From: Planctomycetota bacterium
Lineage (GTDB): Bacteria; Planctomycetota; UBA1135; GCA-002748355
Direction: 5' to 3'
Length of the DNA stretch: 64,000 nt
Assembly (NCBI GenBank): GCA_011321845.1
Contig: DROQ01000081.1
Span: 3,237 to 67,236 of the forward strand
The translations under genes and the position numbers were made by a program. The notes below the pieces were generated by a model that saw only the letters and a list, made by a program, of their open reading frames with translations, had not been told where the DNA came from and did not search any database. This document shows, piece by piece, positions 6,018 to 61,210 of the stretch; positions within the stretch are counted from its first letter, which is position 1; each line of letters opens with the position of its first letter.

Positions 6018-6085
6018 ATTCCCGAAACATGCTATCCTTCCAGGCTCTCTTTCTCCTTTTTCTTTGACGGCAAGTGGGTTTTTCG

Positions 6086-7666
6086 ATGCGCAGGTCCTTT
6101 CTCTCCTTCCTTCCCCCTCTCCTTGGATTCCTGGTTTCGCTGGCCGGTTCCCTTCCCGCTCAGAAGCAGCTTCAACTCATTCGGGTTCCGAACCAACCCA
6201 GAATCGGGACCTTCGGAGAGAGCACCGCGATCTCGGGAAACCTGATGGCCGTCGGGGCGAGTGATGAGCGGGTTACAGGGAATTACGCGGGCGCGGTCTA
6301 TGTCTACAAAAAGGTTGGGACCTCTTGGGTTCTGGACGCGAGGTTGACAGCCCCTGTCCCCACGGCTCTGGACCGGTTCGGGTCCACGGTTGCCCTCTCG
6401 GGTTCTGTCCTTGTGGTTGGGGCGCCAGCGATTCTTTCCAAGGTCCACAATGGAAGGATCCATATCTTCCGGAGGAAGAATGGGAAATGGACCCATGAAG
6501 CCCAGTTCGAGAGGGGGCGTTGGTTTGGGGTTTCGATCTCCATTTCCGGTAACCGGGTGGTGAGCGGGGCGCCGGGGACACGCCATTCCCGGGTGAACTG
6601 GGGAGGGAACAACTACGCGGGAGCGGTCTGGGTCTTTCGATTCAACGGAACCAAGTGGGTGGAAGAAGCCAAACTGCTCGCCGGCGATCCCGGCTATAGC
6701 GACCACTTCGGGTCGGCGGTCGCGATCCAGGGGAACAGCCTCCTGATCGGTGCCTCGGGGGACAGCGACGAGGCCCAGAGGCGGTACGGCATCGGCTCGG
6801 TCTACGCCTTCGACTGGAATGGCAGCGCTTGGGTCCAGTCCCAGAAGTTCCGTGCGCTCAAGTTCGCCGACCAGTCCTTTTTCGGCGCTGCGATCTCCTG
6901 GGATGGAAACGAAGCCTTGATCGGGTCGCCCGGAAAAAAAGCCAACGGAACCTGGGGAGCCGGTGCGGCCTACCTCTTCCACAAGGGAACCGGAGGCTGG
7001 GTCGAACAACAGAAGTGGACTTCGCCCTGGCCGAGCACCTCCGCCGCTTTTGGGAGGAGGGTTGTGCTCAAGGGTGGCCTGGCCCTGATCGGTCATCAGG
7101 GGCGTGACGCCGAAGGAAACAAGCGCGGAGCGATTCATGTTTGGCGCAGGTCGCCCACCAACAAATGGATCCCGGAGCCCCCCTTCCAGGGCAGGGGCCT
7201 CGTGGGCAAGTACTCGGATTTCAACGGGGGCCTCGCCTTGGATGGCAACACCCTGGTCGCGGGGGGATACATCGAGGACAACAGCTCCTGGAGTGGTGGG
7301 GCCGCCTGGGTTTTTGACATGAGCCCGGCCTTTCACCTCATGGTTCTTCCTCTTCCGGTCGTGACCAAGGACACGGCCAAGTTCGAGCTTCGTTTCGCCC
7401 CCAAGAACGCAGTGGGGATCCTGATGTTCGGGTTCACCGGGACCACGAAGCTTCCCCTTCCCTGGCCGGGGACCGTTCTTCGTCTCAACGCGCCCATGAT
7501 CATCGGCGCGATGTCGACCGGGACCAAGGGGAAGGCCCTCTGGGAATTCAACATCCCCGCGGTTGCTCAGGGGGTCAGGCTGTGGACTCAGGCCCTCGAG
7601 ATCGAGAGCTTCAGCAAGGCCAAGACCAGCAACCTGATTTACACTCGGATCAGGGCTCCGTTTTAG
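6086..7666 (+). CDS. Secreted FG-GAP (integrin-alpha-like) repeat protein with distinct C-terminal module
   Basis: Signal peptide MRRSFLSFLPPLLGFLVSLAGSLPAQ. Repeated FG-x-[AS]-V/I-A-x-x-G-x-x-L-x-[IV]-GAP units (FGSTVALSGSVLVVGAP, FGSAVAIQGNSLLIGAS, FGAAISWDGNEALIGSP). ATG 6086 lies inside the track ORF that starts at GTG 6074. Confidence 0.7.
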   Translation: MRRSFLSFLPPLLGFLVSLAGSLPAQKQLQLIRVPNQPRIGTFGESTAISGNLMAVGASDERVTGNYAGAVYVYKKVGTSWVLDARLTAPVPTALDRFGSTVALSGSVLVVGAPAILSKVHNGRIHIFRRKNGKWTHEAQFERGRWFGVSISISGNRVVSGAPGTRHSRVNWGGNNYAGAVWVFRFNGTKWVEEAKLLAGDPGYSDHFGSAVAIQGNSLLIGASGDSDEAQRRYGIGSVYAFDWNGSAWVQSQKFRALKFADQSFFGAAISWDGNEALIGSPGKKANGTWGAGAAYLFHKGTGGWVEQQKWTSPWPSTSAAFGRRVVLKGGLALIGHQGRDAEGNKRGAIHVWRRSPTNKWIPEPPFQGRGLVGKYSDFNGGLALDGNTLVAGGYIEDNSSWSGGAAWVFDMSPAFHLMVLPLPVVTKDTAKFELRFAPKNAVGILMFGFTGTTKLPLPWPGTVLRLNAPMIIGAMSTGTKGKALWEFNIPAVAQGVRLWTQALEIESFSKAKTSNLIYTRIRAPF

Positions 7667-35209: not shown

Positions 35210-37012
35210 TCACATGTCCATTTGAACCGTGAGGGGGAGTGGGCGGCCGAGCACCCCTCTCTCCCGGTGGGACTTGCTGGCGGGATCGTTCATGTCCTCC
35301 TTTTGTCCGGGGGCGGTGTTTCCCGAGACCAGGAGGTCGTAATTCCCTGAGCCTTCGAAGCACCATAGGGAAAACTCGCCCTTGGGACCGGTCTTGGTCT
35401 GACGGGGAAACTTCTTGGCGGGGAAGAGTTCTTCCCAGATGGTTTCCAGGACCAGGTCACTCCACCTTGTACTCATGCCTTGCTGCCCGTCGGCCGAGCC
35501 CGCGACGAGCCTGATCTCCCGGTCGACCACCGGGAGGTTCCCCGGATCCACGACGACCCCATAGATTCTCTTGGGGGGGGAGAGGATCAGGCTGATGTTG
35601 TAATCGGTGGGTTGCTTGTCGTTACGAAGGACCTGGAGGACCTTGCGGGCGAAGCCCATCTTTTTGGAGATGGAGAGGATCATATAGGTCCCCTCGGGGA
35701 GGGAGGGGCTGTTCCAGATGCCGTTCTCTCCTTTCGCCAGCTTGACGTAGGCATCGGGGAGCCCGGACTCCTTGGGGCCATAGGCCCGGATCTCGAGGTC
35801 GAAGTCACCGGATTCCCGGGGAGCCTTGACGCGGACGTGGACTCTCCCTCCATCCACGTTGAGGGTGCCCAGGTTGACTGTGGTGCCCTCCTGGGAGGCG
35901 GGGACATCCAGGATGGGGCAGACCTCTCCGCTGGGGAGGATGGCCATGACCTCGTAGTAGGTATGGGGGTCGAGGAGGCTGCAGTCGATCTTGCCTTCCG
36001 CGTCTGTGGTGAGAAGAGTCGTAAAGTCGCCAAAGGAGATTCCGGAGGGGTGCATGCGCCCACGGAAGAAGATCTGGATGCCGCTGACGGGTTTCTTGTT
36101 GCGGTCGATGAACCTCCCCTGGACCCGGCGCCCGGGGCGGAGTTGGAGATGGATCTGGGGAGCGGGATCACGAGGGGAGAGCCCGGGCTCCAGGTCGATC
36201 AGGGCCTTGGGAAAGCCCTTGCCCTCCACCAGGAGGGTCGCTCCAGGCCCGTACTCGAGCCCGTCCAGGATGAAGTTGCCGTTCAGGTCGGACATGGTCT
36301 GGCTGTGCAGAGCCGCTCCGAGGACCTCGATCCGGGCGGCTGGAACCGGTTTTCCATAGGTCCCGCCGGACTTGACTTCCCCTTTGAGCTGGATTCCCCG
36401 GACAAGCGGGATCCTGGCGGGGGCGGCTCCCGGCTTGAGGGAGAAAGGTTTCCGCATCCGAAGAGGGCCTCCCGCAAGCTGGATGTCCCAGTTTCCCGGG
36501 GGGACATTGGCGATCTCGAAGGAGCCCGTCTCATCGCTGATCCCTTGGAACCGGTAGGGGACCCCCTCTGGGGCCAGGGGATAGCGAGTGGCGTAGAAGG
36601 CCAGCTTGGTTTTGGGCGCTTTGCCACGGTAGACAAAGCTCCCTTTGAGGGACTTGGCCGGTTTCAACTCGATGCGCAGGTTGTTGTCCGGGGGGGAAAC
36701 AAGGTCCTGGATACGGCTGACGCTGTTTCCGTTCCTTGCCAGGACGGAGTAGAGGCGACCCGGGGGGACCTGGAGATGGAACCTTCCACCGGGGTCGGTC
36801 TTGACCGTCCTTGTCACCGTTTTGATGGACGAGAAGGAGATGCCCCCGTAGCTGGGGAGGGCTCGGTTCCGAACCAGGACTTCGGCTCCCGGGACTGGTT
36901 TCCCGTTCTCGAGGACGACCCCGGAGAGGGAAAAGGCGGCCAGGTCCTTGGGGGTTCTCCCCGGAGCTTGGGGAGAGAGGAGGACAAGGAGAAGGGGGAG
37001 ACTTGTTAGCAT
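35210..37012 (-). CDS. Secreted multi-domain protein with carboxypeptidase-regulatory-like (CarboxypepD_reg) beta-sandwich repeats
   Basis: Signal peptide MLTSLPLLLVLLSPQAPG. Several units of the type G-V/R-V-x-x-x-G-K-P-V-x-G-A-x-V/I...D-x-x-G-x-F (GVVLENGKPVPGAEVLV...DPGGRFHL; GRFIDRNKKPVSGIQIFF...DAEGKI). Confidence 0.6.
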   Translation of the reverse strand: MLTSLPLLLVLLSPQAPGRTPKDLAAFSLSGVVLENGKPVPGAEVLVRNRALPSYGGISFSSIKTVTRTVKTDPGGRFHLQVPPGRLYSVLARNGNSVSRIQDLVSPPDNNLRIELKPAKSLKGSFVYRGKAPKTKLAFYATRYPLAPEGVPYRFQGISDETGSFEIANVPPGNWDIQLAGGPLRMRKPFSLKPGAAPARIPLVRGIQLKGEVKSGGTYGKPVPAARIEVLGAALHSQTMSDLNGNFILDGLEYGPGATLLVEGKGFPKALIDLEPGLSPRDPAPQIHLQLRPGRRVQGRFIDRNKKPVSGIQIFFRGRMHPSGISFGDFTTLLTTDAEGKIDCSLLDPHTYYEVMAILPSGEVCPILDVPASQEGTTVNLGTLNVDGGRVHVRVKAPRESGDFDLEIRAYGPKESGLPDAYVKLAKGENGIWNSPSLPEGTYMILSISKKMGFARKVLQVLRNDKQPTDYNISLILSPPKRIYGVVVDPGNLPVVDREIRLVAGSADGQQGMSTRWSDLVLETIWEELFPAKKFPRQTKTGPKGEFSLWCFEGSGNYDLLVSGNTAPGQKEDMNDPASKSHRERGVLGRPLPLTVQMDM

Positions 37013-48789: not shown

Positions 48790-51345
48790 ATGAATTTTCG
48801 ATCTACACCCATTTTTGTTGCCGCCTGCACCTTGCTTCTCTCGGTGTACTCCTGTGGAGGAGGGGGGGGAGCCCCCGCAGGGGCTTTGGGGATTGTTCGA
48901 GGCAAGCTGGTCCTCCAGACGGGAGTGCCTGGGAGTCCCACTCCTTCGCAATGGGAGCCTGGCACCAGGGAGGGAAGCTCCGGAGCGATGTCGGAAGAAG
49001 AGCCCAATGATCAGCTCTTCTCCGCCCAGGATCTCGGGAGGCAGCCTTTCCAGATGAAGGTCTCGGGGCGTGTCGGGGGGAGCGGAGATCCGAGGGATCT
49101 CTTTCGTTGGGGACCCTTGGATGCCAAGGGGCGGTTGGGACTCGGCCTCTCGGGGGCCCCGGGGCTCAGGCTGAGGGTCTACCGCTGGGAACAGGGAAGC
49201 GCCCAGCCAGAGGTCTTCGAGGGGGATGGGAGCCGGAGCGCCTCGCTTTCCTACTCGCCGGGACAGGAACTCTTGGTCGAGGTCCATGGGTTGGACCTGG
49301 GACAGGAGAGGGGCTATTCCCTCCAATTCAGGAAAGAGTCGGTGGAGACCCTCCTTCCGGGCTCCCAGTCCAACCCTGGACTCGTCCCCTTGAGCCACAA
49401 GGTGGGAATGGAACGGTTCCGGCTGGCCTTGGACCAGCAAAAGCCGGAACGTTTCCTCCCCGAACTGGTCGTGGAACTCTCCTCCCAAGAAGCCCTAAGG
49501 GAGCGGCAGCGCCGGGCTCTCAGGGCAATGGGCCTTTCGCTGGTCTCGGTGGGCGGCAACGTGGAACGTTGGCGGGATCCTTCCCTGGCGGCGTGGAAGG
49601 GGACTGGAGCCCTTGGACTCCATTCCTCCCTGGCGGTCGCCGATCTCTGCCGCAGGGCGCGAAGGACCCTGGGAGAGGGGGCCAAGGTCAGCCCGAACAT
49701 CCAGATTCCACTCCGCAGCCTCGCCTCGACCATGGGCCCCCCTCTGCTGCTTCAAGGAGCAGAGATGCCAGGATCCGGGGGGATCCTTTCGGGGAACGGT
49801 CCCAACGATCCTCTCTATTCCTCCTCGCAGTGGAACATGCCCTTGGCCGGTTTCCCCGCAGCCTGGGGCCTGACCCACGGAAGCCCCAGAGTCACGATCG
49901 CGGTTTTGGATACCGGGGTGATGATTCGTCATCCCGACCTTTCCCCCCGAGTGTCCAAGTGGAGTTTCGATTTCGTTTCGGACGCCTTTTCCGCAGGGGA
50001 TGGCGACGGAGTGGACCCCGACCCCTCGGAGCCTCCGAGTTTCGAAACCCTGAGTCTCTTCCATGGGACCTATGTCTCGGGGATCGCGGCGGCTCAGACG
50101 GACAATAAGCAGGGAGTGGCAGGGGGGACCTGGGTCGGCAAGCTCCTCGGCCTTCGCATCTTCGGAAAGAAGGGGAGCAACAGTTTCGATCGCGTCCAGG
50201 CCCTCCGTTACATCCTCGGAAAGACGAACAGCTCCGGCAAGATCCTTCCCAAGGACGAGCGGCCCCAGGTCGTCAACATGAGTTATATCGAGCTTTTCCC
50301 CACCCAGGTCGAAGTGGGTTTGATTCGGGAGATGGCCTGCCAAAACATCTTGATGGCCGCCGCCTTGGGGAACGAAGGGCAAAAACTGACGCAGCCCCAC
50401 TACCCCGCTTCCTGGCCGGAGGTGATCGGGGTGGTCGCGGTCGGCCCCGACGGAAAGCGGGCTCCCTACTCCAACATGGCGAGCTTCGCCGACCTCGCTG
50501 CTCCGGGGGGGCTCGAGATCTCCGGTCCCAAGGGGGTCGTCTCCACTTGGGCGGCGACGCGGCAAGGGAAGTTCCAATTCGGTTACAACTCTTTCCTGGG
50601 GACTTCGGTCGCGACCCCGCATGTGACCGCGGCCCTTGCCCTGCTCCGAAGCGTCTATCCGGCCATCACCAAGCAGAAGGCCTTGGACTTTTTGGCCCGA
50701 ACTGCGGTGGACAAGGGACCCAAGGGCAAGGACCAGGAATACGGCTATGGGCTGATCGACGTGGGAAAAGCCGTAGCCCTCGCCAAATCCAAATGGAGCG
50801 CGCCTCTCGCGGGGCTGGACCGGGCGGGGATCGACCTGGGCACGCAGGTGTCGACGACCAGCATGACTCTCCAGAATCGGGGAGGAGGTGTCCTTCAGCT
50901 GGACGCGATCCGCCCCATCGGGCAGCACAGTGGAGGGCTGCGCCTCTACGCTTCCTGTATCGTCGCCCCGGCGCCCATCACCATCGAAGTGGATCGGAGC
51001 AAGGTTCTTCCGGGTCGCTACAACGAGCGCTTCGAGTTGGACACGAATGGGGGAACGGTCGCAATCGACATTTCCTATTCCAAGGAGATTCCCGCGCCGA
51101 AGGGACCGCTCCTGGTGCGTGTTCTGGACGGAGACCGGGTCCTGGGGGAGACGACCGCAACTCGGGACGGGAGCTTCGAAATCCGTGGGTTGCCTTTGGG
51201 GAGCTTTCGGCTGGAGGCCGGGATCGACCAGAACAACAACGGGAAGCTCGGTGACAGCCAGGAGTGGTACCTCAACATTCCGATCCAGGTTCGCCAGGAT
51301 CCACCCCCTGGGCTCTCCGGGCTCAAGGTGCCCTGGAAACGCTAA
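48790..51345 (+). CDS. Lipoprotein subtilisin-like serine peptidase (S8) with N- and C-terminal extra domains
   Basis: Lipobox LLSVYS-C, then GGGGG. Catalytic triad blocks AVLDTGV (D), HGTYVSGIAAA (H) and GTSVATPHVTAALALL (S). A C-terminal CarboxypepD_reg-like segment (RVLDGDRVLGETTATRDGSFEIRGLPLGSF). Confidence 0.85.
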   Translation: MNFRSTPIFVAACTLLLSVYSCGGGGGAPAGALGIVRGKLVLQTGVPGSPTPSQWEPGTREGSSGAMSEEEPNDQLFSAQDLGRQPFQMKVSGRVGGSGDPRDLFRWGPLDAKGRLGLGLSGAPGLRLRVYRWEQGSAQPEVFEGDGSRSASLSYSPGQELLVEVHGLDLGQERGYSLQFRKESVETLLPGSQSNPGLVPLSHKVGMERFRLALDQQKPERFLPELVVELSSQEALRERQRRALRAMGLSLVSVGGNVERWRDPSLAAWKGTGALGLHSSLAVADLCRRARRTLGEGAKVSPNIQIPLRSLASTMGPPLLLQGAEMPGSGGILSGNGPNDPLYSSSQWNMPLAGFPAAWGLTHGSPRVTIAVLDTGVMIRHPDLSPRVSKWSFDFVSDAFSAGDGDGVDPDPSEPPSFETLSLFHGTYVSGIAAAQTDNKQGVAGGTWVGKLLGLRIFGKKGSNSFDRVQALRYILGKTNSSGKILPKDERPQVVNMSYIELFPTQVEVGLIREMACQNILMAAALGNEGQKLTQPHYPASWPEVIGVVAVGPDGKRAPYSNMASFADLAAPGGLEISGPKGVVSTWAATRQGKFQFGYNSFLGTSVATPHVTAALALLRSVYPAITKQKALDFLARTAVDKGPKGKDQEYGYGLIDVGKAVALAKSKWSAPLAGLDRAGIDLGTQVSTTSMTLQNRGGGVLQLDAIRPIGQHSGGLRLYASCIVAPAPITIEVDRSKVLPGRYNERFELDTNGGTVAIDISYSKEIPAPKGPLLVRVLDGDRVLGETTATRDGSFEIRGLPLGSFRLEAGIDQNNNGKLGDSQEWYLNIPIQVRQDPPPGLSGLKVPWKR

Positions 51346-51408: not shown

Positions 51409-52200
51409 CTACGGGTCGACGAGTCTCCGGATCGCGAGGACCTGGCCTGGGTCCAGACATGCACCCTGGTCCAGTCGGATCCCCTGGGGCCCCAGGGACT
51501 CGAGCCTTCCGTGGATCCCCCCCTCCCCTGTTTCGACGACGACCTCTTCCCCCAGATAGCGGAAGCCTTGGGCGTAGGAATGGAGGACCCTGGACCAGTC
51601 TCCCTTCTCTGCCTCGCTCAGCATCCTCGCAAGCTCCAGGAGAAGAACCTCCAGGAGTTGGGGATAAGAGGTTTGCTCCAGCCCCTCGAGTCGAAGGCTG
51701 CTCGCGCGGCCCCGCAGCTCCTCGGGGAAGCTCCGACGACCCACGTTGCAGCCGATCCCGCACAGATAGGCTCCTGACCCGTCCCCTTCGATCAGGACTC
51801 CCGCGATTTTTTTCTCGTCCAGCAGGAGGTCGTTGGGCCATTTGATCCTCAGTTTCTGTCGGGGGACAGCCATGGTTCCGAGCGCCTCGTAGAGAGCGGC
51901 GGGGAGGAGAAAAGGGAGGAGGAGGGGGGGATATCGCCCGGCTGGGCGAAGCAGGACACTCAGGGCCAGGTCCTCCTCGGGCTCCTGGTTCCAACTCCGC
52001 CCGTGGCGGCCCCGCCCCCCCGTTTGGATCCCCGCACTCAAGGCAAGGTGCTCAGGCTCTCCCTGCTCCAAGGCTTCCCGCAGGCTGTCCTGGGTGGAGA
52101 CCACCCGGTCCAAATGCCAGAGTCGCCAGCCCTCGAAGGGCTCGAGCCGTGCCTGGATTCGGGCCAGGGATTCATCGCTCATTCTGCCGGGTCCTTCCAT
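51409..52200 (-). CDS. birA: Biotin--[acetyl-CoA-carboxylase] ligase (no N-terminal HTH, group I type)
   Basis: Start at ATG 52200 (alternative 52182). Biotin-binding motif TGGRGRHGRSW, a KWPNDLLL block, ~260 aa. Confidence 0.8.
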   Translation of the reverse strand: MEGPGRMSDESLARIQARLEPFEGWRLWHLDRVVSTQDSLREALEQGEPEHLALSAGIQTGGRGRHGRSWNQEPEEDLALSVLLRPAGRYPPLLLPFLLPAALYEALGTMAVPRQKLRIKWPNDLLLDEKKIAGVLIEGDGSGAYLCGIGCNVGRRSFPEELRGRASSLRLEGLEQTSYPQLLEVLLLELARMLSEAEKGDWSRVLHSYAQGFRYLGEEVVVETGEGGIHGRLESLGPQGIRLDQGACLDPGQVLAIRRLVDP

Positions 52201-52498
52201 TCCTCCAGCATGCCCCCTTCTCCGACTTGAGCAAATCACCACGACTGTCGGGTTTTTCGCCGATTTCCCCTCCAGTGCATGGGACTCCCTGCCGATAAGG
52301 GATCGAAGACCCCCGATAGGAAGGGCCGTTGCCCTCCCCCCGAAAAAAAACGTGAAGATCCCCCAAAAAAAGACTGAAGAAACCAAAGTTCCCGTCCTCC
52401 CCTCCTCCGAGGACGGCCTGCGGGACGATCTCCCCCTCCTTCATGGCTTTGGTTCCCCCATCTCCCAAACCCGCGATTGGCTCCGTAGGGGGACACCC

Positions 52499-54973
52499 AT
52501 GGTTCTACCCCTGGGTCTGGGGGGAGAGAACTGCTCCCAAGCTCCTGTTCCCCAAGGGCCTAGAGCGCCGGGCGTGGACTTGGAGCCCGGCTCGACTTCG
52601 GTCCTGGTGGACTCCTGGCCGGAACGCTTCGGCTCCCTCGAAGACGGGCTCGCCTCCCTGGCCGCCAAGATCCCCGAGGGTGGGGAGCTGGTGCTCGACC
52701 TCCTCAACCTCCAGTCGCCTTCGATGCAGCGGCGCTCCTTCGAGGGGCGGACCTCCTCCTTCGATCCTGTTCCCGGGTTGGTGGACACCGAGATTCCCTT
52801 CGAGTGTGCGCGGGTCGTAGGCTCGCTTCAGCGGGCTGGTTTCATCCCCCGCGATTGCATCCAGGTCCCCTTCTTCGGCCACAAGCATCCGATCAAGTCC
52901 ATCCAAGCATTGCTGGAATGCGGGTTCTCGTCCACGCGCTCCTTCTACGCGATCCCCGCCGAGCGCCTCTGGTTCCGCTGCGAGCGCGGAGCCCCAAGGG
53001 TCGGTTCCGTCCTGATCGCCCAAGGCAAGGACCAAGCGGCGGTGGAGCGCACCCTCGCCCGACTCGAAACCTTCCTCCCAGGTTCCTGGGAAATCCTGGT
53101 CGGACCGGAGACCTCCACCGAAGCCGAATCCTGGAACCGGGCTGTGACCGAGGCCAAGGGTGAAATCCTCTGGCTGCTCCGTGGGGGAGACCTACCGGAT
53201 CCGGGGATCTTCGACCTTCTCCGGGCGAGTCTGGGGTCGAGACCCCTCCTTGCCCAGGATCCCGACGGCAGTCTGCGGCATGGCCTCGCAGGCTTGATGC
53301 TCTCCCGGGAGGCCTGCTTTACGGTCGGACCCTTTCCCCAGGAGCTTCAAACCGACCAGGTCGCGGGCGAGGAATGGCTCCTGCGGGCCTCGGCAGCCGG
53401 GAGAGAAGTCGAACAGCTTCCAGCGCCCAATCCCTGGCAAGGCCCAGGCGTTCCTGTCCCCGCACCTCTGGTATTGGAAGAGGAGGCCGCCGCCTTCTTC
53501 GAGCGCTGGGAGGGAGTGGAGACCCTCCAACTTCCGGGTCAAAACCTCGCCGCTCTCGTTCCCACGCCCCCCTGGGTCGAAGAAGCCCGTCCTCCTCGCA
53601 TCTCCCTCTGCATGATCACCCGAAACGAGGAGCGTTTCCTGGGGAACTGCCTGGCTCGGGTTCGTGGAGTCGTGGACGAAATCGTCCTGGTCGACACAGG
53701 TTCCACCGACCGGACTGTTGAGATTGCCAAGAGCTTTGGGGCCAAGGTCCTTCACATGCCCTGGGAGGAGGACTTCGCCACTCCCCGCAACCTCGGCCTG
53801 AGCCACGCGGAAGGAGACTGGATCCTCGTCCTCGACGCCGACGAGCTGGTGGAGGAGGACAGCGTCCCCCTCATTCGCGAGATGGCCCTGAACGAGCGAG
53901 CGAGTGGCTACCACATCCACTTTGTCAACGACTACGAAAAGGGCCGGACGCATGGGCTGACCATGGTCCGGATGTTCCGCAAACTCGAAGGGATCCACTA
54001 CCAATACCGGATCCACGAACAAGTGATCCCCTCTCTGATGAAGGCCGCCGAACCCCTCCACCTGGGTCTCCACCCTTGCGAGGTCAAGGTGATCCACTAC
54101 GGGTACTCGGCTCAGGTCGTCAAGGACCGCTCCAAGATGGAGCGTAATGCCCGCATCTTCCGTGAAGAGCTGGAGAAGAACCCCAATGACTCCTACATCC
54201 TCTACAAGTACGGGGATTCTCTTCGGCAAGGCGGCCATCCGAGCGACGAGATCATCCCCGTCTTCGAGCGGGCGATGAAGCGAATGCTTGCCCATCCCCC
54301 CCAGAGCTGGGTTCAGATGCCCTACGCCGCGGAGACGGCGGCTCTCTTGGGCCTGGAATACGCCAAAGTGGAACGCTACCAGGAGGCCGACCGTGTGCTC
54401 CGCACCGCGTTGGGTCGATTTATTCCGACTCCCAACCTCTTCTACCTGGGGGCAAGCCTCGCCACCCATTTCGAGCGCTGGGACGAGGGGTTGGAGATGT
54501 ACCAACGCCTTCTCGACTATCGAGGCAAGGTCCTGGTGGTCCCCATCCAGGAGGGCATCGACAGCTGGATCGCCTACGCCGGAATGGCCGCATGCTGGAT
54601 GGGCAAGGGTGATCTGGGTCGCGCCGAAGAACTCCTCGAGCGCGCCCGCATCGCCAAGCCGGACTGGGAGGTCAGCTACCTTCTCTCCTCAGGCCTCAAG
54701 CTTCGCCAGTCCGATCCCGAGGGGGCGCTGGCCGTCCTCATCGAGTACCTGGAGAGCCACGGGGAGTCTTCTCCCATTCGTTTCCAGGGAGGGCTCCTCC
54801 TCGAACGAATGGGGCTTGAGGAACAAGCGACCCAATGGTTGCAAAAGGCGAAGCAGGGCAAGGGAGTCGATCCCGCCCTCGTCGCGGAGACTCTCTCTCG
54901 GATCCAAGGCGAGGGATCCCAGTCAGAACAAAGCAAGGAATTCTCTTTTTCCCGGACGACAGTCCAAACTTAG
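52499..54973 (+). CDS. Multi-module glycosyltransferase: N-terminal methyltransferase-like and degenerate GT-like regions + GT2 catalytic domain + TPR repeats
   Basis: The GT2 core has ISLCMITRNEERFLGNCL, LVDTGSTDRT and VLDADE. A C-terminal ~350 aa is TPR-like. The start is uncertain: I chose ATG 52499 to avoid overlap with birA, while the track ORF begins at 52094. Confidence 0.7.
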   Translation: MVLPLGLGGENCSQAPVPQGPRAPGVDLEPGSTSVLVDSWPERFGSLEDGLASLAAKIPEGGELVLDLLNLQSPSMQRRSFEGRTSSFDPVPGLVDTEIPFECARVVGSLQRAGFIPRDCIQVPFFGHKHPIKSIQALLECGFSSTRSFYAIPAERLWFRCERGAPRVGSVLIAQGKDQAAVERTLARLETFLPGSWEILVGPETSTEAESWNRAVTEAKGEILWLLRGGDLPDPGIFDLLRASLGSRPLLAQDPDGSLRHGLAGLMLSREACFTVGPFPQELQTDQVAGEEWLLRASAAGREVEQLPAPNPWQGPGVPVPAPLVLEEEAAAFFERWEGVETLQLPGQNLAALVPTPPWVEEARPPRISLCMITRNEERFLGNCLARVRGVVDEIVLVDTGSTDRTVEIAKSFGAKVLHMPWEEDFATPRNLGLSHAEGDWILVLDADELVEEDSVPLIREMALNERASGYHIHFVNDYEKGRTHGLTMVRMFRKLEGIHYQYRIHEQVIPSLMKAAEPLHLGLHPCEVKVIHYGYSAQVVKDRSKMERNARIFREELEKNPNDSYILYKYGDSLRQGGHPSDEIIPVFERAMKRMLAHPPQSWVQMPYAAETAALLGLEYAKVERYQEADRVLRTALGRFIPTPNLFYLGASLATHFERWDEGLEMYQRLLDYRGKVLVVPIQEGIDSWIAYAGMAACWMGKGDLGRAEELLERARIAKPDWEVSYLLSSGLKLRQSDPEGALAVLIEYLESHGESSPIRFQGGLLLERMGLEEQATQWLQKAKQGKGVDPALVAETLSRIQGEGSQSEQSKEFSFSRTTVQT

Positions 54974-54989
54974 CAAACCGAGGTAAATC

Positions 54990-55616
54990 ATGACCACGAC
55001 CAAACTCTTTCCTGGTGCAGGCATTCAACGGGTACCCGAAGTGGGGCCCAACAAGATTCCTACGCGGATTGGAGAGCAGACGATGAACTCCGACACGCAA
55101 ACCAACCAAGGACAGGTCCAGGCAGATCCCCAGGAGGTATTGAGGAGGCTCGTCGTCCTCGGCGCAGGACTCGCTTCCATCCATCGCCTGGCGAGCGAAG
55201 CCTATGCCTCCATCAATGACTACGAGTCTGCCCTGGCCCATCAAGAGGCGGCAGTCCGTTTCGAACCCCAGGAGCTGGAGTATCGGAATCAGCTCGGATT
55301 CCTTCGGTATGTCTGCGGAGATGACGGTGCGGCGGAGGACTTCCAGTATGTCATCGAGAACGACCCCGAGAACGCGGAGGCCTACTTCAATCTCGCCATG
55401 ATCTACTTCGGTCAGGGGCGTTACTATGATGCGGAACAGCTCTTCATGAAGGCTGCCGAGAACAATCCCCAGGACGCCGAAACCTGGAACAATTTGGGGG
55501 TGGCCAGGTTCCACCAGGGACGCCTCGCGGACGCCCGCGCCAGTTTCGAAGAAGCCCTCCGGGTGGATCCCAACAACCAGGACTCCATCCAGAACCTGCA
55601 GGACCTGCAGGGCTGA
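54990..55616 (+). CDS. TPR repeat protein
   Basis: An SD-like GAGGT lies 6 nt upstream of the ATG. There are 3-4 TPR units (AEAYFNLAMIYFGQGRYYDAEQLFMKAAENNPQDAETWNNLGVARFHQGRLADARASFEEALRVDPNN). Confidence 0.75.
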   Translation: MTTTKLFPGAGIQRVPEVGPNKIPTRIGEQTMNSDTQTNQGQVQADPQEVLRRLVVLGAGLASIHRLASEAYASINDYESALAHQEAAVRFEPQELEYRNQLGFLRYVCGDDGAAEDFQYVIENDPENAEAYFNLAMIYFGQGRYYDAEQLFMKAAENNPQDAETWNNLGVARFHQGRLADARASFEEALRVDPNNQDSIQNLQDLQG

Positions 55617-55673
55617 ATCACCGCCGCGCCCTTCTCACGCATCCACCGAGGGAGGGTGGCGATGGTCCGGGAT

Positions 55674-55706
55674 AAAAAAAGCCAGGGAGGCCTCTGCCCC
55701 CCTGGC
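55674..55706 (-). terminator. Rho-independent terminator of the Cys-rich protein gene
   Basis: On the minus strand: GCCAGGG-(12 nt)-CCCTGGC followed by T7 (A7 at 55674-55680 on the plus strand). It lies 23 nt after the stop at 55729. Confidence 0.7.
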
Positions 55707-55728
55707 TGCTACACGTTCCCCGTGTGCT

Positions 55729-57042
55729 CTAGTTGGTGATCTTGAACTCGACTGCGTTGGAGATCCCGCCGAAGCCGCTCCCGCTCGCGTTCTTGCAGTA
55801 AACGAGCCACTGAGCGCAGAGCGGTTTGCCGCAGATGGCACTCGCGATGGAGGGAGAGGACGGGAGAGGAACGGGGATGGCGGCGTTTCCGGTGCATCCG
55901 CCGGAGCCTCCCATGAAGGTCGCGCTCACGAAGATGGTCGGCCCATTGAGCGCGTAGAACCGTCCGCAGAGGAAGGGGAGGCCCACAGTGTGGCAAGGAC
56001 CCCCTCGCAGGATCACGATGCCGATGCCGCCGCTGGGAGCATTGTTGAGAGTGAGCTTGAAGTTCTGGTTCCCCAGGACCGGATCGCCGCCTGCCCAGGA
56101 GGCGAACATGTTGTTGCAGGTCGGGCAAGGCTTTTGCGAGCAGGACTTGCCTTTGACCCCAGGTTTGAAGCCGGGGATGACGGCCAGACCGCGGTATTTC
56201 GAGGGGATTTGCTTTTTGCAGCACTTTCCGATCTTGATTTTGCAGGGGTTCTGGCTGGAGACGAAGTGCATCTGGGTGACTTGTCCATCCGTCGCGTAAA
56301 GTTCCCGCTTGCAGTTGTCATAGGCCAACCCGGTTACCAGCTTCTGGGAGCAGGTCATGATCCTGGCCTTGCAGATCGGCTTGCAGGGGGAGGAGGCTGG
56401 TGAAACAAAGACCATGTGGTTGTAACCACCGACCGCATTGATGTAGGAGATGGAAATGAACAGCCGGTCGTTCGGTTCGTCGTAGGCAATCCCGGCTGCC
56501 AAGGGGCGACCGATTCCTCCCGTTGTTGGGAATTTATAGGCGCATCTTGCAATCGCCCTGGGGCACTTGCGAAGGTCATAGGTGACCACTTCGAAGTAGT
56601 AGTACGTGGTCGAGAGTTGGAAGAGTCTGGGTTTCTTCTGGGCGATGGCCAAACCGCTCACGTAGGCGTTTTTATTCAATTGAATCGCTTTGAAGGGTTT
56701 GCATCGAGGTTTGCAACCCCTCACGGCGTACTCCGCGAGGAGTTTCCCATCACTGACCCAGACGGTCCGATAGCGGGCGTCGTAGGCCGTCCCCCCCGAG
56801 TATGCGTTGTAGGCTTGGGGACGGAGCGGGAGGTTTCCTGGGTATTTGCAAACGGTTATGGCCTTCTGGCAATTGTTGTCGACATCCTGGATGTCCAGAT
56901 AGCTGGCATTGTTGGGGGCGGGGAGATCCGACCAACCCACGACTCTCTTGCTTGGGAAGAGAGGAAATTGAGCCATTGCCGCCGATGTCAGAAGAAGGGC
57001 GCAGGCAGCCTTTCCGGCGAGGTGACTTGAGAGGTAACGCAT
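55729..57042 (-). CDS. Secreted cysteine-rich protein with YWTD/NHL-like propeller repeats and a C-terminal beta-rich module
   Basis: Start at ATG 57042 with GGAG 8 nt upstream. Signal peptide ...LLLTSAAMAQ. At least four blade-like units (GTAYDARYRTVWVSDG, GLAIAQKKPRLFQL, GIAYDEPNDRLFISI, GLAYDNCKRELYATDG), each followed by a CxnC pair. I count about 22 Cys in the mature ~410 aa. Confidence 0.7.
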   Translation of the reverse strand: MRYLSSHLAGKAACALLLTSAAMAQFPLFPSKRVVGWSDLPAPNNASYLDIQDVDNNCQKAITVCKYPGNLPLRPQAYNAYSGGTAYDARYRTVWVSDGKLLAEYAVRGCKPRCKPFKAIQLNKNAYVSGLAIAQKKPRLFQLSTTYYYFEVVTYDLRKCPRAIARCAYKFPTTGGIGRPLAAGIAYDEPNDRLFISISYINAVGGYNHMVFVSPASSPCKPICKARIMTCSQKLVTGLAYDNCKRELYATDGQVTQMHFVSSQNPCKIKIGKCCKKQIPSKYRGLAVIPGFKPGVKGKSCSQKPCPTCNNMFASWAGGDPVLGNQNFKLTLNNAPSGGIGIVILRGGPCHTVGLPFLCGRFYALNGPTIFVSATFMGGSGGCTGNAAIPVPLPSSPSIASAICGKPLCAQWLVYCKNASGSGFGGISNAVEFKITN

Positions 57043-57315
57043 TTTTTCTCCTTTTGAGGGTTCCCTTTTGCTGTAGCCCGAGCCCGAACCCAAGGGGAGA
57101 GAGTCCTCTCCTTGGGAAAGCGGTCTGGAGCGAGGCAGAGAAAGGGAAAACAACGGATAGGAAACAAAGAGATGCAAAACCCCGAAGCGCCTTGGGTGGA
57201 ACGACTGCCCCAAGGACCGCACCGGAGCCTTGCCCGGCGGTGGTGACCCAGGCATTTTTGAGGGAAACTAGAGGAAGGTCACCACAACTGGGATCTTTGA
57301 CGCGGTGATGCCTCG

Positions 57316-58695
57316 CTAGGGTTCCCTTTTTTTTGGTTCTTGCGGGAAACTCAGGCGGTGGAGGGAATATGCATGCCAGCGCGGCTTGTTTCCATTCTGG
57401 ATCCTGGCCTCCAGTTCCTTGAGCCGGACTCCTACCTTCCCCACATTCTTTTCGAGCGCTTTGAGCCGTTCTTGGATCGCACGATGGTCCGGGCTGTTCG
57501 ATTGGCCTTTTTGTTTGGATCGGGCGAGCATTCGTCGGGCTTCCCAGATGTCACGGATCCCCGTCCGTACTAGCCCTCCCCGCTCCGCGTTCCAGGCGAC
57601 GCACTGCTCGGCTTGGATCCAATCGGGATGGTCTGTTTCGAGGGCGAGGTCTACTCCCTTGGCCCATTCTTTGGCTGTTGCGGTCAAAAGAGCCATCCCA
57701 TCCACGCGCAATTCATAGTCTCCCGGTGGAAGATCCTTGGCCTGAAGGAGAAAACGATTGAAGAGCAGGTAGCCGGCTTCCAAGACCGCTGCCCCTCTGG
57801 CCTCCTCCGGAAGAACCCAGGGAAGCGCGTCCGCCCGGAGCTGGAATTGGAAACCGTCCGAAGTGCGGACCAGGCCTCGAAGTCTCCCTCCCTCGATTTC
57901 GGGACGGTTTCCTTGGATGCCCACGCTCAGGCGGGGTTTTTGTTCACCAAGGGATTTGAGAATCGTGATGGCGATGAGGGCGCTCCCGACATTGCCAGGG
58001 TGGATTCCATCCGGGGAGAGGCTTTCCGCTGGGTTCCTGAACTTGAGGCGTTTCTGGTATTGCAGGAGCGGGTTGTGCAAATCCACGAAGGGAATCTTTC
58101 TCTTCGCGGCTTCGGTCTGCAGCCAGGAGCCGAAGCGCTTCAATACGAGGTTGTACCCCCTGAGGGTCTCTTCCACGGGGGGCGGGGATCCGAACCGCAA
58201 GAACACATGAGGATCCACCGGAGGGGGTGAGAGGAGGATCGCCTGTGCTCCCAGGCCCCGGATTCCTCCTAGGATTCCCCGGATGTTCCTCTGGAATTCG
58301 GGGAGAGCCTTGATTCCATCCCTGGAGAAGGCGCCGTCGTTCATCCCAAGGCAGACGAAGACCTTGGTGGGTTTCCAGGGTGCCACGTCCAGGTCCAAGC
58401 GGGCGAGGGCGTCCGCGCTGCGATCCCCATTGACGCCGCAATTGACGAACAACTGTTTGCGGAGGGGGTAGCGTGAAAAGAAGAAGTCCTCGACAAAGCG
58501 GCTGTAGAGGCCTTGGTGGGTGATGCTGTCCCCCAACCAGACGATCCTGGAAGTAGGCGGGAAGGATCCCTGCTTTTGCCCGTCCAGGGGGGACGCAACC
58601 ATGAGGGCTCCCCATCCCAGGAGTAAGGCGAGGAGCCGGGGCGATGGTCTTCGGCGCGCGTTTTCCCTGGGGCCGGAGTGCACCGGGAGTCCCAT
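57316..58695 (-). CDS. Secreted SGNH/GDSL-family hydrolase with C-terminal extension
   Basis: Start at ATG 58695 (MGLPVH..., signal-like LLALLLGWGALMVASP). Block I WLGDSITHQG, block II NCGVNGDRS, block III CLGMNDG. Confidence 0.75.
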   Translation of the reverse strand: MGLPVHSGPRENARRRPSPRLLALLLGWGALMVASPLDGQKQGSFPPTSRIVWLGDSITHQGLYSRFVEDFFFSRYPLRKQLFVNCGVNGDRSADALARLDLDVAPWKPTKVFVCLGMNDGAFSRDGIKALPEFQRNIRGILGGIRGLGAQAILLSPPPVDPHVFLRFGSPPPVEETLRGYNLVLKRFGSWLQTEAAKRKIPFVDLHNPLLQYQKRLKFRNPAESLSPDGIHPGNVGSALIAITILKSLGEQKPRLSVGIQGNRPEIEGGRLRGLVRTSDGFQFQLRADALPWVLPEEARGAAVLEAGYLLFNRFLLQAKDLPPGDYELRVDGMALLTATAKEWAKGVDLALETDHPDWIQAEQCVAWNAERGGLVRTGIRDIWEARRMLARSKQKGQSNSPDHRAIQERLKALEKNVGKVGVRLKELEARIQNGNKPRWHAYSLHRLSFPQEPKKREP

Positions 58696-58774
58696 GGGGA
58701 AAAACCTTGAAATGTGCGGAGAGCTTCCCGAGAAGCTCTTCTTCGACCCAGGAAAGGACGGGTAGACTGTAGCG

Positions 58775-61210
58775 ATGCTTTTCCTCCCTCTTTGTTTCGC
58801 TTTTGGAAGTCTCGTTCTCCAGCAGCCTAGCCAGGCTGGTCTTCCAAAGAAGGGCGATCCTGGTTTCAAGAGGCAAAAAACACTCGGACGAGTCCTCGAT
58901 AAGGAGGGAAAACCTTGGGCCGGAGTCCGGGTGCAGTTGCGGTCCTATCCTGTCTTCGACCAACCTTTTCTGGGAAAAACCGATCGTATCGAGGTGGTTT
59001 CGGACGCCAGGGGCCGCTTCCGGGCTTCTCTGATCCCCGGACGACGGTATTTGGCCTGGGGGATCGGAGGCAAAGGCAAGAATGGGCTCCGAACGGCCTC
59101 CCTCTTGGACATGGTTTTTGCCCGTGGGCACCTCCAGTTGAAAGAGGGGGATTGGGAGGCTCGCTCCTACCAATTCCAATTGGGTGGACGCGAGCGCTGG
59201 AAGGGAGATCTCCTCGTCTTGGGAAACTTGCAGGGGCAGGACTCTCTCGCTCGCATCCTCACCCCCGATGAGAGGGGGGTCTACGAGACCCCGCTTTGGC
59301 CTGGAAAGGTCCTGGTTCGGGTCTTTACCAAGGCAGGCTTGAAAGTGGGGCAATGGTCCTTTCCGCTCGATGAAAGGGAGAAAGGGAGCGCATCCAAGGG
59401 GACTGCCCCGACGGGCTTGGTCCGAAATGTCCAGGTCCTGAAGATCATTCAAAGGGCCAAGGCTCTCAAGAAAGGAAAAGGCAACGAGCCCAAGCCCAAA
59501 GAACCTGAAAAGCCCAAAAAAACATCCAAGAAGAGTTCCAAGAAGCAGGACCAGAACAAGGGAGCCGCGAAAAAACAGGATTCGAAAAAGAATGCTTCGA
59601 CAGGAAGCTCTCCAAGGAATTTCCCGGCAGAGGCCCCGGTGAGAGCGGTACAGAAGCATCCGGCGCCAAAAGATCTGACCCCGAAAAGCCCGGCGCTGAA
59701 AAGCCCCGTGCCGAAAAGCCCGGTGCCGAAAGAAGGGAGGTTGAAACCGGAGGGGGGCGGCAAGAAGCCTGGCAAGGAGAGTGAGGAGAACGGGGAAGAA
59801 AAAGCCGAGGCTGCCCCTCCGGTTCCCGGAATCCCGGTCCTGGAATTGTATTGGCACGCCCTCATCAAGCTCAAGGTTCGCAAGCGGGAGGATGGAAAGC
59901 AGTCGTACTCGGCCGCCCCCAAGGTTCGCTTGCGGGTCCTGCCCCCCGACAAGACCCTTGGCCTCTTTGACTGGATCCATGTTCCTCCGCTTACGGTGAC
60001 CGATGAAGAAGGAATGGGATTGTTGGACATGGCTGTCCCGCCTGGAAAGAACGGTCAGGTGAGCCAATCATGGAGAATGATCGCGGAAAGCGAGGGCTAT
60101 TGCTGGGTGTTCCCCAGTCTCTACCGAAAGCTGGAATACCCCAAGGATTCCAAGGATAAAACGATCAAGGACAAGTCTCCTCCTCTCACCATGAACCTCT
60201 TCTCGAGGAAGAGTTTCTCTCTCAAGGGGCGCCTCCTGGGCCGCGAAGGAAAGCCCATCGCCCATCGCCCCCTTCTCCTCTACACCTCCCGGCCTAGTTC
60301 TGCCAATGGCTGGAGCCATGGGAGAGATCCTCTTTTTGTTGGGACCACGGGAGCGAACGGGAGTTTCGAGCTGAACAACTTGGACCCCAGGTCCACCCAG
60401 GTTGTGACCGTCCTGCTCAGTGAAGAGGAGCGGGCGTCCCTGGGCGGAGGTTCTCCCTGGATGGACGCCCGGGCCGTGATTTTTTTTCGGCAGGACGGCC
60501 GAAAAAAGGTGGATGAGGTGGACCTCGAGGACTTCTCCTTGAAGGATCTGCATCGCCTGGAATTGAAAGTGGCCTTTTTGGACAACTCTCCCGCACCCTT
60601 CTCCCGCGTGCTGATTGCCGAGACCCAGATGCACCCCAATGGTTTGATCGGAATCTACTATCCCCTCCAGGGATTCACGGATCGGAGGGGCCGCTTCGCC
60701 ATGCTTCTCCCCGATTGCGAAGCGACCATCGGAGTCATCGGGCAGATGCGCCGCATGGCTTCACAGAGGTTGGTCCTCAAGGGGAAGAAGGGCGGGAAGA
60801 GAGAACTTCTCTTCACCCTGGGCCAGGGGAAGCTCCTCCGGGGAGTGGTCGTCGACAGTGATGGGAAACCCTTTTCAGGGGCCAGCATCTATGTGAATCT
60901 CTACAACACGGGAAGGAACCAGTCCGGGTGGATTTTCTCGACCTTCCGGCAGAACAACAGCACAAAGGCTGACGAAAAGGGCCGGTTCCAAGTGAGAGCC
61001 CCAGTGGGGAGCCGGATTTATCTTTCCGCCCGGTACAAGGTGGGGCCACGTTGGTTCTATTCACGCGGCGTTCAGATCCAAGTGGAGGAGGACATCGACC
61101 CGGATCCCCTGGAACTGCAGATTCCCACCGAAGCGCCCAAACCTCCAAAAAAGCCCAAGTCCCCTAAGAAGAAGGAGAAACCGGCTCCCTCCCGGGAAAA
61201 GGGAAGGTAG
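58775..61210 (+). CDS. Secreted CarboxypepD_reg-repeat protein with internal and C-terminal Lys/Pro/Ser-rich regions
   Basis: Signal peptide MLFLPLCFAFGSLVLQQPSQAG. Units GRVLDKEGKPWAGVRVQL...DARGRFRA, GRLLGREGKPIAHRPLLLY...GANGSFEL and GVVVDSDGKPFSGASIYV...DEKGRFQV. A ~120 aa K-rich insert and a tail APKPPKKPKSPKKKEKP. Confidence 0.6.
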   Translation: MLFLPLCFAFGSLVLQQPSQAGLPKKGDPGFKRQKTLGRVLDKEGKPWAGVRVQLRSYPVFDQPFLGKTDRIEVVSDARGRFRASLIPGRRYLAWGIGGKGKNGLRTASLLDMVFARGHLQLKEGDWEARSYQFQLGGRERWKGDLLVLGNLQGQDSLARILTPDERGVYETPLWPGKVLVRVFTKAGLKVGQWSFPLDEREKGSASKGTAPTGLVRNVQVLKIIQRAKALKKGKGNEPKPKEPEKPKKTSKKSSKKQDQNKGAAKKQDSKKNASTGSSPRNFPAEAPVRAVQKHPAPKDLTPKSPALKSPVPKSPVPKEGRLKPEGGGKKPGKESEENGEEKAEAAPPVPGIPVLELYWHALIKLKVRKREDGKQSYSAAPKVRLRVLPPDKTLGLFDWIHVPPLTVTDEEGMGLLDMAVPPGKNGQVSQSWRMIAESEGYCWVFPSLYRKLEYPKDSKDKTIKDKSPPLTMNLFSRKSFSLKGRLLGREGKPIAHRPLLLYTSRPSSANGWSHGRDPLFVGTTGANGSFELNNLDPRSTQVVTVLLSEEERASLGGGSPWMDARAVIFFRQDGRKKVDEVDLEDFSLKDLHRLELKVAFLDNSPAPFSRVLIAETQMHPNGLIGIYYPLQGFTDRRGRFAMLLPDCEATIGVIGQMRRMASQRLVLKGKKGGKRELLFTLGQGKLLRGVVVDSDGKPFSGASIYVNLYNTGRNQSGWIFSTFRQNNSTKADEKGRFQVRAPVGSRIYLSARYKVGPRWFYSRGVQIQVEEDIDPDPLELQIPTEAPKPPKKPKSPKKKEKPAPSREKGR

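Follow-up and report, generated by a model that had tools for sequence, protein, structure and literature searches.

What kind of protein is encoded at positions 55729-57042, on the minus strand, of the 64,000-nucleotide stretch of the Planctomycetota contig DROQ01000081.1 analyzed here (the window)? An earlier note had described a secreted, cysteine-rich protein of repeated blades reminiscent of YWTD and NHL β-propellers, with staples of disulfide or metal. The open reading frame (ORF) comprises 437 residues and a stop codon, and its product is a new version of a well-known propeller fold. For its role, we give an even chance to the reading that it is a rugged, disulfide-braced, exported five-bladed propeller with an immunoglobulin (Ig)-like sandwich, whose loops bind an external ligand, probably a glycan.

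An AlphaFold2 model built with a 33-sequence alignment reaches a predicted local distance difference test (pLDDT) of 91.8 and a predicted template-modelling score (pTM) of 0.88. In this model, three N-terminal strands (residues 33-68) are followed by four sets of four strands (from G83, G130, G184 and G238) and by a single strand (287-289), after which come a short cysteine-rich segment and a β-sandwich (about 313-435). As the propeller strands number 20 and the G-L-A motif of strand A occurs five times, the fifth time as GLAVIP (285-290), the model is read as a five-bladed propeller with four full YWTD/NHL-like blades and a split fifth blade closed in a 1+3 arrangement. The parts, from the N terminus on, are as follows.

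55729..57042, minus strand: coding sequence, the window copy of an unnamed Planctomycetota protein family (homologues, and a conserved block of Shine-Dalgarno (SD) sequence and ATG)
56968..57042, minus strand: predicted Sec signal peptide of the signal peptidase I type, residues 1-25, ending in AMA followed by Q (n, h and c regions from sequence)
56833..56961, minus strand: N-terminal three strands, residues 28-70, read as strands B-D of blade 5, with C58 and C65 (DSSP strands 33-39, 46-52, 62-68)
56680..56808, minus strand: blade 1, residues 79-121, GGTAYD...VWVSDG...C110KPRC114 (this and blades 2 to 4 from AlphaFold2 and blade profiles)
56527..56673, minus strand: blade 2, residues 124-172, GLAIAQ...RLFQLS...C160PRAIARC167
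56356..56511, minus strand: blade 3, residues 178-229, GIAYDE...RLFISIS...C220KPIC224
56206..56349, minus strand: blade 4, residues 232-279, GLAYDNC244...LYATDG...C267KIKIGKC274C275
56167..56190, minus strand: predicted blade 5 strand A, residues 285-292, GLAVIPGF, the 1+3 'velcro' closure (fifth G-L-A motif, strand 287-289)
56092..56166, minus strand: cysteine-rich linker, residues 293-317, with a near-invariant C301-x4-C306-x2-C309 (family alignment)
55732..56091, minus strand: predicted Ig/fibronectin type III (FN3)-like β-sandwich, residues 318-437, with C350, C359, C383, C404, C409 and C416 (domain model)

The blades share the signature G-L-A-x-D followed by [LV]-[YFW]-x-[ST]-D-G. Since family profiles of single blades detect other blades, the blades are homologous to each other: within the window protein, the b2 profile finds blade 4 (E 1.6e-7), blade 3 (9e-6) and blade 1 (1.9e-4), and the b4 profile finds blade 1 (E 8e-7). 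The repeated units picked out by the earlier note are thus real. In the split fifth blade, VVGWSD of the N-terminal strands resembles the LYxTD motif of strand B, and G285 and L286 of strand A are conserved at 98% and 91% in the homologue alignment.

Among solved structures, Foldseek ranks the YWTD propellers of ROS1, Sevenless and LRP2 highest (E 4.5e-8 to 1e-5), with YncE, lactonases, WD40 proteins and five-bladed enzymes of glycoside hydrolase (GH) families GH43 and GH32 ranking next. All these propeller matches, the top-ranking YWTD propellers no less than the other classes, show about 10% identity and a template-modelling (TM) score of about 0.3, that is, agreement at the level of the fold only. 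AlphaFold2 and Foldseek support the propeller with YWTD/NHL-like blades that the note had anticipated, with structural matches that are generic. The likeness does not extend to the number of blades, which is five here and six in YWTD and NHL propellers.

How close, then, are the known propellers? In the YWTD group (LDLR, LRP2/megalin, ROS1/Sevenless), GLAVDW...LYWTD parallels the GLAxD(x4-5)LYxTDG of the family, and these proteins, too, are extracellular ligand-binding scaffolds with cysteine-rich modules. Unlike the bacterial window protein, however, they have six blades, lack an inter-blade disulfide ring and are followed by EGF domains rather than by an Ig-like sandwich, and PF00058 finds no match in the window protein at E <= 10, nor in 33 members of the family at E <= 1. 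NHL propellers (PF01436; SOQ1, NHLRC2) share the strand A/B motif and provide the sole hints at the sequence level, but they are without the cysteine pattern. These hints are the SOQ1 NHL domain, the only match of the family profile in a sequence-profile search of the PDB (E 0.69), and a PF01436 match in the homologue P0121 that stays below threshold (E 0.044, 14.3 bits against a cut-off of 20); PF01436 finds no match in the window protein itself. The SMP-30/gluconolactonase/LRE-like family (PF08450) gives no Pfam or NCBIfam match to this five-bladed protein, and lactonases appear only among the generic Foldseek matches. Olfactomedin domains are a family of multicellular organisms, and an inter-blade disulfide chain is, to our knowledge, not among their features. 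They are five-bladed, extracellular, disulfide-bonded propellers (PMC4463452, PMC4488277). The window protein resembles them in blade number, secretion and predicted disulfides, but shows no sequence or Foldseek relation to them.

The Pfam scan of the window protein yields only a chance-level zinc-finger match (E 0.23, residues 304-316), the NCBIfam scan yields nothing at E <= 10, and neither database matches the propeller or the sandwich in 33 relatives; no account of a family of this kind turned up in the literature searches. With no usable Pfam, NCBIfam or PDB sequence match, the view that the protein fits no described bacterial family holds, and the characterized families that might have contradicted it (SMP-30, a lectin propeller) gave no match in these sequence searches. 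A word-indexed search returned 39 homologues, all unnamed, and an exhaustive search of 1.84 billion cluster representatives returned 236 at E <= 1e-3 and 82 at E <= 1e-30, mostly of 400-450 residues, the figure of 236 counting clusters at 50% identity. All 15 loci obtained from species-representative genomes lie in metagenome-assembled genomes and none outside Planctomycetota; their labels are mostly Planctomycetota or a planctomycete lineage, one pair being given only as 'uncultured bacterium'. Five genomes hold at least two paralogues each, two having been found with a single search pattern. To judge from these sequences, the family is apparently Planctomycetota-restricted and undescribed.

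Where would such a protein act? The predicted signal peptide has n, h and c regions and ends in AMA, and the glutamine at +1 (Q25) recurs in 85% of 150 homologues; residues 1-23, with a pLDDT below 50, are the sole disordered part of the model. Of the 23 cysteines, 22 belong to the mature chain, in agreement with the secreted 22-cysteine protein of the earlier note. The remaining one, C14, lies inside the signal peptide and is not conserved, and a lipoprotein was rejected on this ground and for want of a lipobox.

The cysteine strings quoted for the mature chain are all found (CKPRC 110-114, CPRAIARC 160-167, CKPIC 220-224, CKIKIGKCC 267-275, CSQKPCPTC 301-309). To find their partners, 150 near-full-length homologues were aligned and the joint disappearance of cysteines was scored. 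Seven pairs emerge, listed below with the number of homologues that have lost both or only one cysteine, with Fisher p-values that ignore shared ancestry, and with the number of independent groups, that is, mutually divergent groups less than 45% identical to each other.

C224-C267: both lost 20, one lost 5; p 1e-19; 15 groups
C231-C274: both lost 15, one lost 8; p 2e-14; 8 groups
C244-C404: both lost 17, one lost 9; p 1e-14; 16 groups
C65-C110: both lost 10, one lost 7; p 7e-11; 6 groups
C167-C220: both lost 6, one lost 7; p 4e-7; 5 groups
C306-C416: both lost 5, one lost 4; p 7e-7; 2 groups
C114-C160: both lost 3, one lost 6; p 1.5e-4; 2 groups

On the strand map four of these pairs follow a rule, in that a cysteine on the D strand of a blade is matched with one in the C-D loop of the following blade: 65-110 at the interface of blades 5 and 1, 114-160 at 1-2, 167-220 at 2-3, and 224-267 at 3-4. 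By extrapolation, the ring would be completed by C275, on the D strand of blade 4, and C58, in the C-D loop of blade 5. Disulfides within each CxnC hairpin, by which the earlier note had each blade closed, were rejected, as the two members are almost never lost together (no co-loss for 110/114, two for 58/65, three for 267/274), and where C58 seems to be lost, the alignment is shifted. Rather, each CxnC cysteine co-varies with a partner in the neighboring blade or in the C-terminal domain, and the staples thus appear to run between blades. Of the two kinds of staple that had been envisaged, paired loss and partner swapping favor disulfides, and the pairwise nature of the losses disfavors metal. 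The swapping concerns C350: only 45% of members have C409, and where it is absent and C350 is kept, a cysteine at position 430 is usually found. C409 and Cys430 never co-occur (0 co-occurrences, p 1e-18), and C350 stays with either, which is the behavior of a disulfide and not of a metal site. A subfamily carries extra cysteines at the positions of A287 (41/150) and A430 (51/150), and Cys287 tends to be found together with Cys430 (p 1.5e-7), but not invariably. We know of no earlier description of a β-propeller chained covalently by inter-blade disulfides.

These elements suggest the following sequence of events. The chain would be exported by Sec, cleaved between AMA and Q, and fold into a five-bladed propeller, the ring being closed by one C-terminal and three N-terminal strands, with the cysteine-rich linker and the Ig/FN3-like sandwich coming after. 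In an oxidizing extracytoplasmic compartment, the 22 cysteines would form disulfides: 65-110, 114-160, 167-220 and 224-267 would rivet adjacent blades, with 58-275 as a putative closure, 231-274 would brace blade 4, 244-404 and 306-416 would fix the sandwich onto the propeller, and C350 would bond to C409 or to the alternative Cys430. The result would be a rigid, covalently braced two-domain scaffold, which would engage an external ligand, probably a glycan, most likely through its variable loops and not through a conserved active site.

The sandwich deserves separate consideration. Modelled alone it reaches a pLDDT of 90.5 with an Ig/FN3-like fold, and Foldseek against solved structures returns only generic Ig/FN3 domains for it (best E about 0.1). 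The pairs 244-404 and 306-416 would connect the sandwich and the linker to blade 4 of the propeller and make one rigid body of the two domains, and this apparent disulfide link speaks for a permanent structural domain in this family. The earlier note had also claimed that the module is shared with an FG-GAP protein encoded elsewhere in the window (6074-7666, plus strand; six PF14312 repeats). The relation is remote but above chance: the C terminus of the FG-GAP protein scores 13.0 bits against a hidden Markov model (HMM) of the family C terminus, the maximum of 2000 shuffles being 7.2, and matches the C terminus of the window protein with a BLASTP E of 0.004. A database search with the FG-GAP C terminus found nothing and a big-database search with a profile of the C-terminal domain found a single fragment, so the sharing was judged locally, by HMM and shuffles. 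When the ORFs of all fetched loci were searched with the family C-terminal HMM, the module appeared at or near the C terminus of several otherwise unrelated proteins, which are listed here after the window copy:

7316..7663 of the window, plus strand: cysteine-free sandwich copy ending the FG-GAP_2 propeller protein 6074-7666 (BLASTP and HMM)
L006 1912-3807: 632-residue protein adjoining a family paralogue (E 7e-8)
L018 3597-5204: Laminin_G_3/ConA-like protein (E 3.7e-5)
L018 10441-13335, L005 11774-12247 and L015 10809-12548: further carriers, including DUF4082-like and larger unannotated proteins

The module measures about 115 residues, its copies outside the family are mostly without cysteines, and no Pfam model covers it. 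Its distribution would be consistent with a lineage-specific role in sorting, in anchoring or as a stalk.

Could sorting be its principal role? One alternative, which is compatible with the binding scaffold favored here and which we consider rather improbable, holds that the sandwich is a lineage-specific sorting or anchoring module resembling the C-terminal domains of the type IX secretion system (T9SS), and the propeller a surface adhesin or receptor. The presence of related domains at or near the C terminus of unrelated proteins (FG-GAP_2, Laminin_G_3, the 632-residue protein, unannotated ones) agrees with this, as does the fold, since T9SS C-terminal domains are likewise small Ig/FN3-like sandwiches at the extreme C terminus of diverse secreted proteins. 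However, the apparent disulfides 244-404 and 306-416 to the propeller, its would-be passenger, speak against a cleavable tag, Pfam, NCBIfam and structure searches gave no significant match to the T9SS domains, which belong to another phylum, and we know of no T9SS in Planctomycetota. Moreover, no partner machinery was identified, T9SS machinery not having been searched for, the weaker module matches are marginal (E 0.003 to 0.2), two of them have extra residues past the domain, and the big-database search with the domain profile gave almost nothing. A combined version, in which one disulfide per blade interface closes the ring (58-275, 65-110, 114-160, 167-220, 224-267) and the sandwich is a Planctomycetota-specific sorting or anchoring unit for exoproteins (FG-GAP, ConA-like and others), is in our view less likely than not.

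What, then, is the scaffold for? Conservation of at least 80% among the 150 homologues is limited to a few sandwich positions and to the repeat scaffold with its Gly, Ala, Asp, Trp, Thr, Pro and Cys, and a conserved constellation of His, Glu or Arg outside the repeats, sought in the same homologues, was absent. About one third of the closer relatives have an extra N-terminal domain of about 200 residues, and this extension matches the carbohydrate-binding module (CBM) CBM_4_9 in 11 of 33 members, with P0014 at 27.7 bits exceeding the curated cut-off of 25.9. The existence of multiple paralogues, export, disulfide bracing and a CBM-bearing subfamily argue for a binding scaffold with diversifying loops, and we infer a lectin or ligand-binding role, with a glycan as the best guess for the ligand.

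Several points weigh against this interpretation. The periplasm, the surface and the medium are all conceivable locations, and this latitude counts against it. Besides their disregard of ancestry, the co-loss data support 114-160 and 306-416 by two independent groups each, and the invariant C58, C275, C301, C309, C359 and C383 are not pairable by co-variation, so that the disulfide map is a map of co-variation from which the S-S chemistry is surmised. The ligand is likewise surmised, and a CBM fusion is equally typical of enzymes. The Asp at the end of strand A is conserved in blades 1, 3 and 4 (D88 90%, D188 85%, D242 about 70%) and could form a central metal or catalytic site instead of belonging to the scaffold. 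Finally, the gene neighborhood is not conserved and offers no clue to the function.

An enzyme is accordingly the other alternative to be weighed, and an unlikely one in our view: a GH43/GH32/GH62-like propeller with sandwich, or a Ca2+-dependent hydrolase, lyase or lactonase of the NHL/SGL type, in which the three aspartates, facing the central cavity, would take part in catalysis or bind a metal and the disulfides would only stabilize. A five-bladed propeller followed by a β-sandwich is indeed the architecture of the GH43/GH32 matches 7bys, 5jow, 6ms3 and 8bes (E 1e-6 to 1e-4), CBMs such as the CBM_4_9-like module of the long-form subfamily are most often attached to carbohydrate-active enzymes, and D88, D188 and D242 occupy equivalent strand ends. 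However, these GH matches, at a TM score of about 0.3 and 10% identity, are no better than those to non-enzymatic propellers, and sequence searches of Pfam, NCBIfam and the PDB match no GH or SGL family even at E <= 10. The conserved aspartates belong to the GLAxD repeat motif, whose Asp is structural in YWTD/NHL blades, and the blade motif itself is YWTD/NHL-like and not GH-like; an Asp/Asp/Glu triad as in GH43/GH32 catalysis is not identifiable in the sequence, and no His, Glu or Arg is conserved outside the repeat scaffold. Nor were polysaccharide-utilization neighbors present at the compared loci. That all or part of the cysteines instead bind Zn or Fe, for example in a Cys4 site of C275, C301, C306 and C309 or in CxnC pairs of adjacent blades, would fit the CxxC-like spacings, the chance-level zinc-finger match at 304-316 and the (near-)invariant C275, C301 and C309 that lack a co-varying partner, but is very improbable given that the Sec signal leads to an oxidizing compartment, that cysteines disappear in pairs, each with its specific partner, and not in fours, that C350 swaps its partner between 409 and 430, and that C306 co-varies with C416 in the other domain.

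The protein stands for a sizeable family, of about 236 clusters at 50% identity, that lies outside the curated databases and apparently occurs in uncultured Planctomycetota alone. Its blades are of the type familiar chiefly from animal receptors, and their number, five, is unusual. The predicted inter-blade disulfide chain, if true, would rigidify a propeller in a new manner, of relevance to protein design and to propeller evolution, and the shared sandwich is a hint that Planctomycetota exoproteins are handled by a common route. For the present the impact is modest, since the function is one that we infer.

The gene itself is delimited by the following signals.

57048..57053, minus strand: Shine-Dalgarno sequence AAGGAG, five bases 5' of ATG 57042 (read from the sequence; kept in the relatives L016, L017 and L001)
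57089..57116, minus strand: imperfect leader hairpin CCCAAGG...CCTTGGG (folding; probably incidental)
55673..55707, minus strand: intrinsic terminator, a 12-bp G+C-rich stem (55680-55707) and T7 (-34.7 kcal/mol, z = -4.5)

When the upstream regions of the three relatives are compared, conservation starts exactly at the SD+ATG block and the rest is poorly conserved, and ATG 57042, giving the 437-residue product, is therefore the real start; a 508-residue ORF starting at 57255 was rejected on the same ground. The gene thus has its own ribosome-binding site, as had been noted. The public gene calls for the closest relatives, P0001 and P0003 (508-509 residues), begin at an ATG farther upstream and so gain about 71 residues, corresponding to 57043-57255 (minus strand) in the window, and conservation of the SD+ATG block indicates that these starts are over-extended. 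The T7 terminator described earlier is substantiated by its folding energy, which none of 200 shuffles reaches. The leader hairpin exists, about 10 nt from its reported position, but the strength ascribed to it is at shuffle level (z -1.1 for a 56-nt piece, +0.08 for the whole leader); it has no counterpart in the compared relatives, and an Rfam search of the leader gave no match. A regulatory RNA was rejected on these grounds, and the hairpin is probably incidental. A monocistronic unit, as previously claimed, is plausible. The same-strand GDSL gene upstream ends 273 nt away, and no terminator-like, promoter-like or sigma-70-like site was seen in the interval.

The neighborhoods of six homologues were compared, and no partners are conserved beyond close relatives, which share the order GDSL, family member, TPR, glycosyltransferase family 2 (GT2). 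At the window locus the surrounding synteny is:

57316-58869 (minus), 54990-55616 (plus), 52094-54973 (plus) and 51409-52386 (minus): GDSL/SGNH hydrolase, family member, TPR, GT2 with TPR, biotin-protein ligase, S8 subtilase

This arrangement, from the GDSL gene to the S8 subtilase, is kept in the 81%-identical relative L016 and not in more distant homologues. Two distant paralogues adjoin a Ser/Thr kinase, in one case fused to an FGE-sulfatase domain, and an extracytoplasmic function (ECF) sigma factor of the PF07638 type (L018/L019 2916-7839; L020 9932-13396); the kinase/ECF arrangement is absent at the window locus and at three other loci, and the adjacency is possibly coincidental.

Further N-terminal additions occur within the family: residues 15-56 of P0050 are a Peptidase_M64 tail, probably a fused gene call, P0121 carries a Lys-rich/TPR/PEGA region at residues 1-390, and P0083, with residues 1-560 unannotated, keeps only the last blades and the sandwich. 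The window as a whole is rich in large predicted exoproteins (29434-32808, minus; 35210-37012, minus; 48790-51345, plus; 58775-61210, plus), among them a tricorn-like protease (PD40, Tricorn_C1 and Peptidase_S41), two proteins with CarboxypepD_reg domains and an S8 subtilase; the product of 58775-61210 contains a long Lys/Pro-rich low-complexity stretch.

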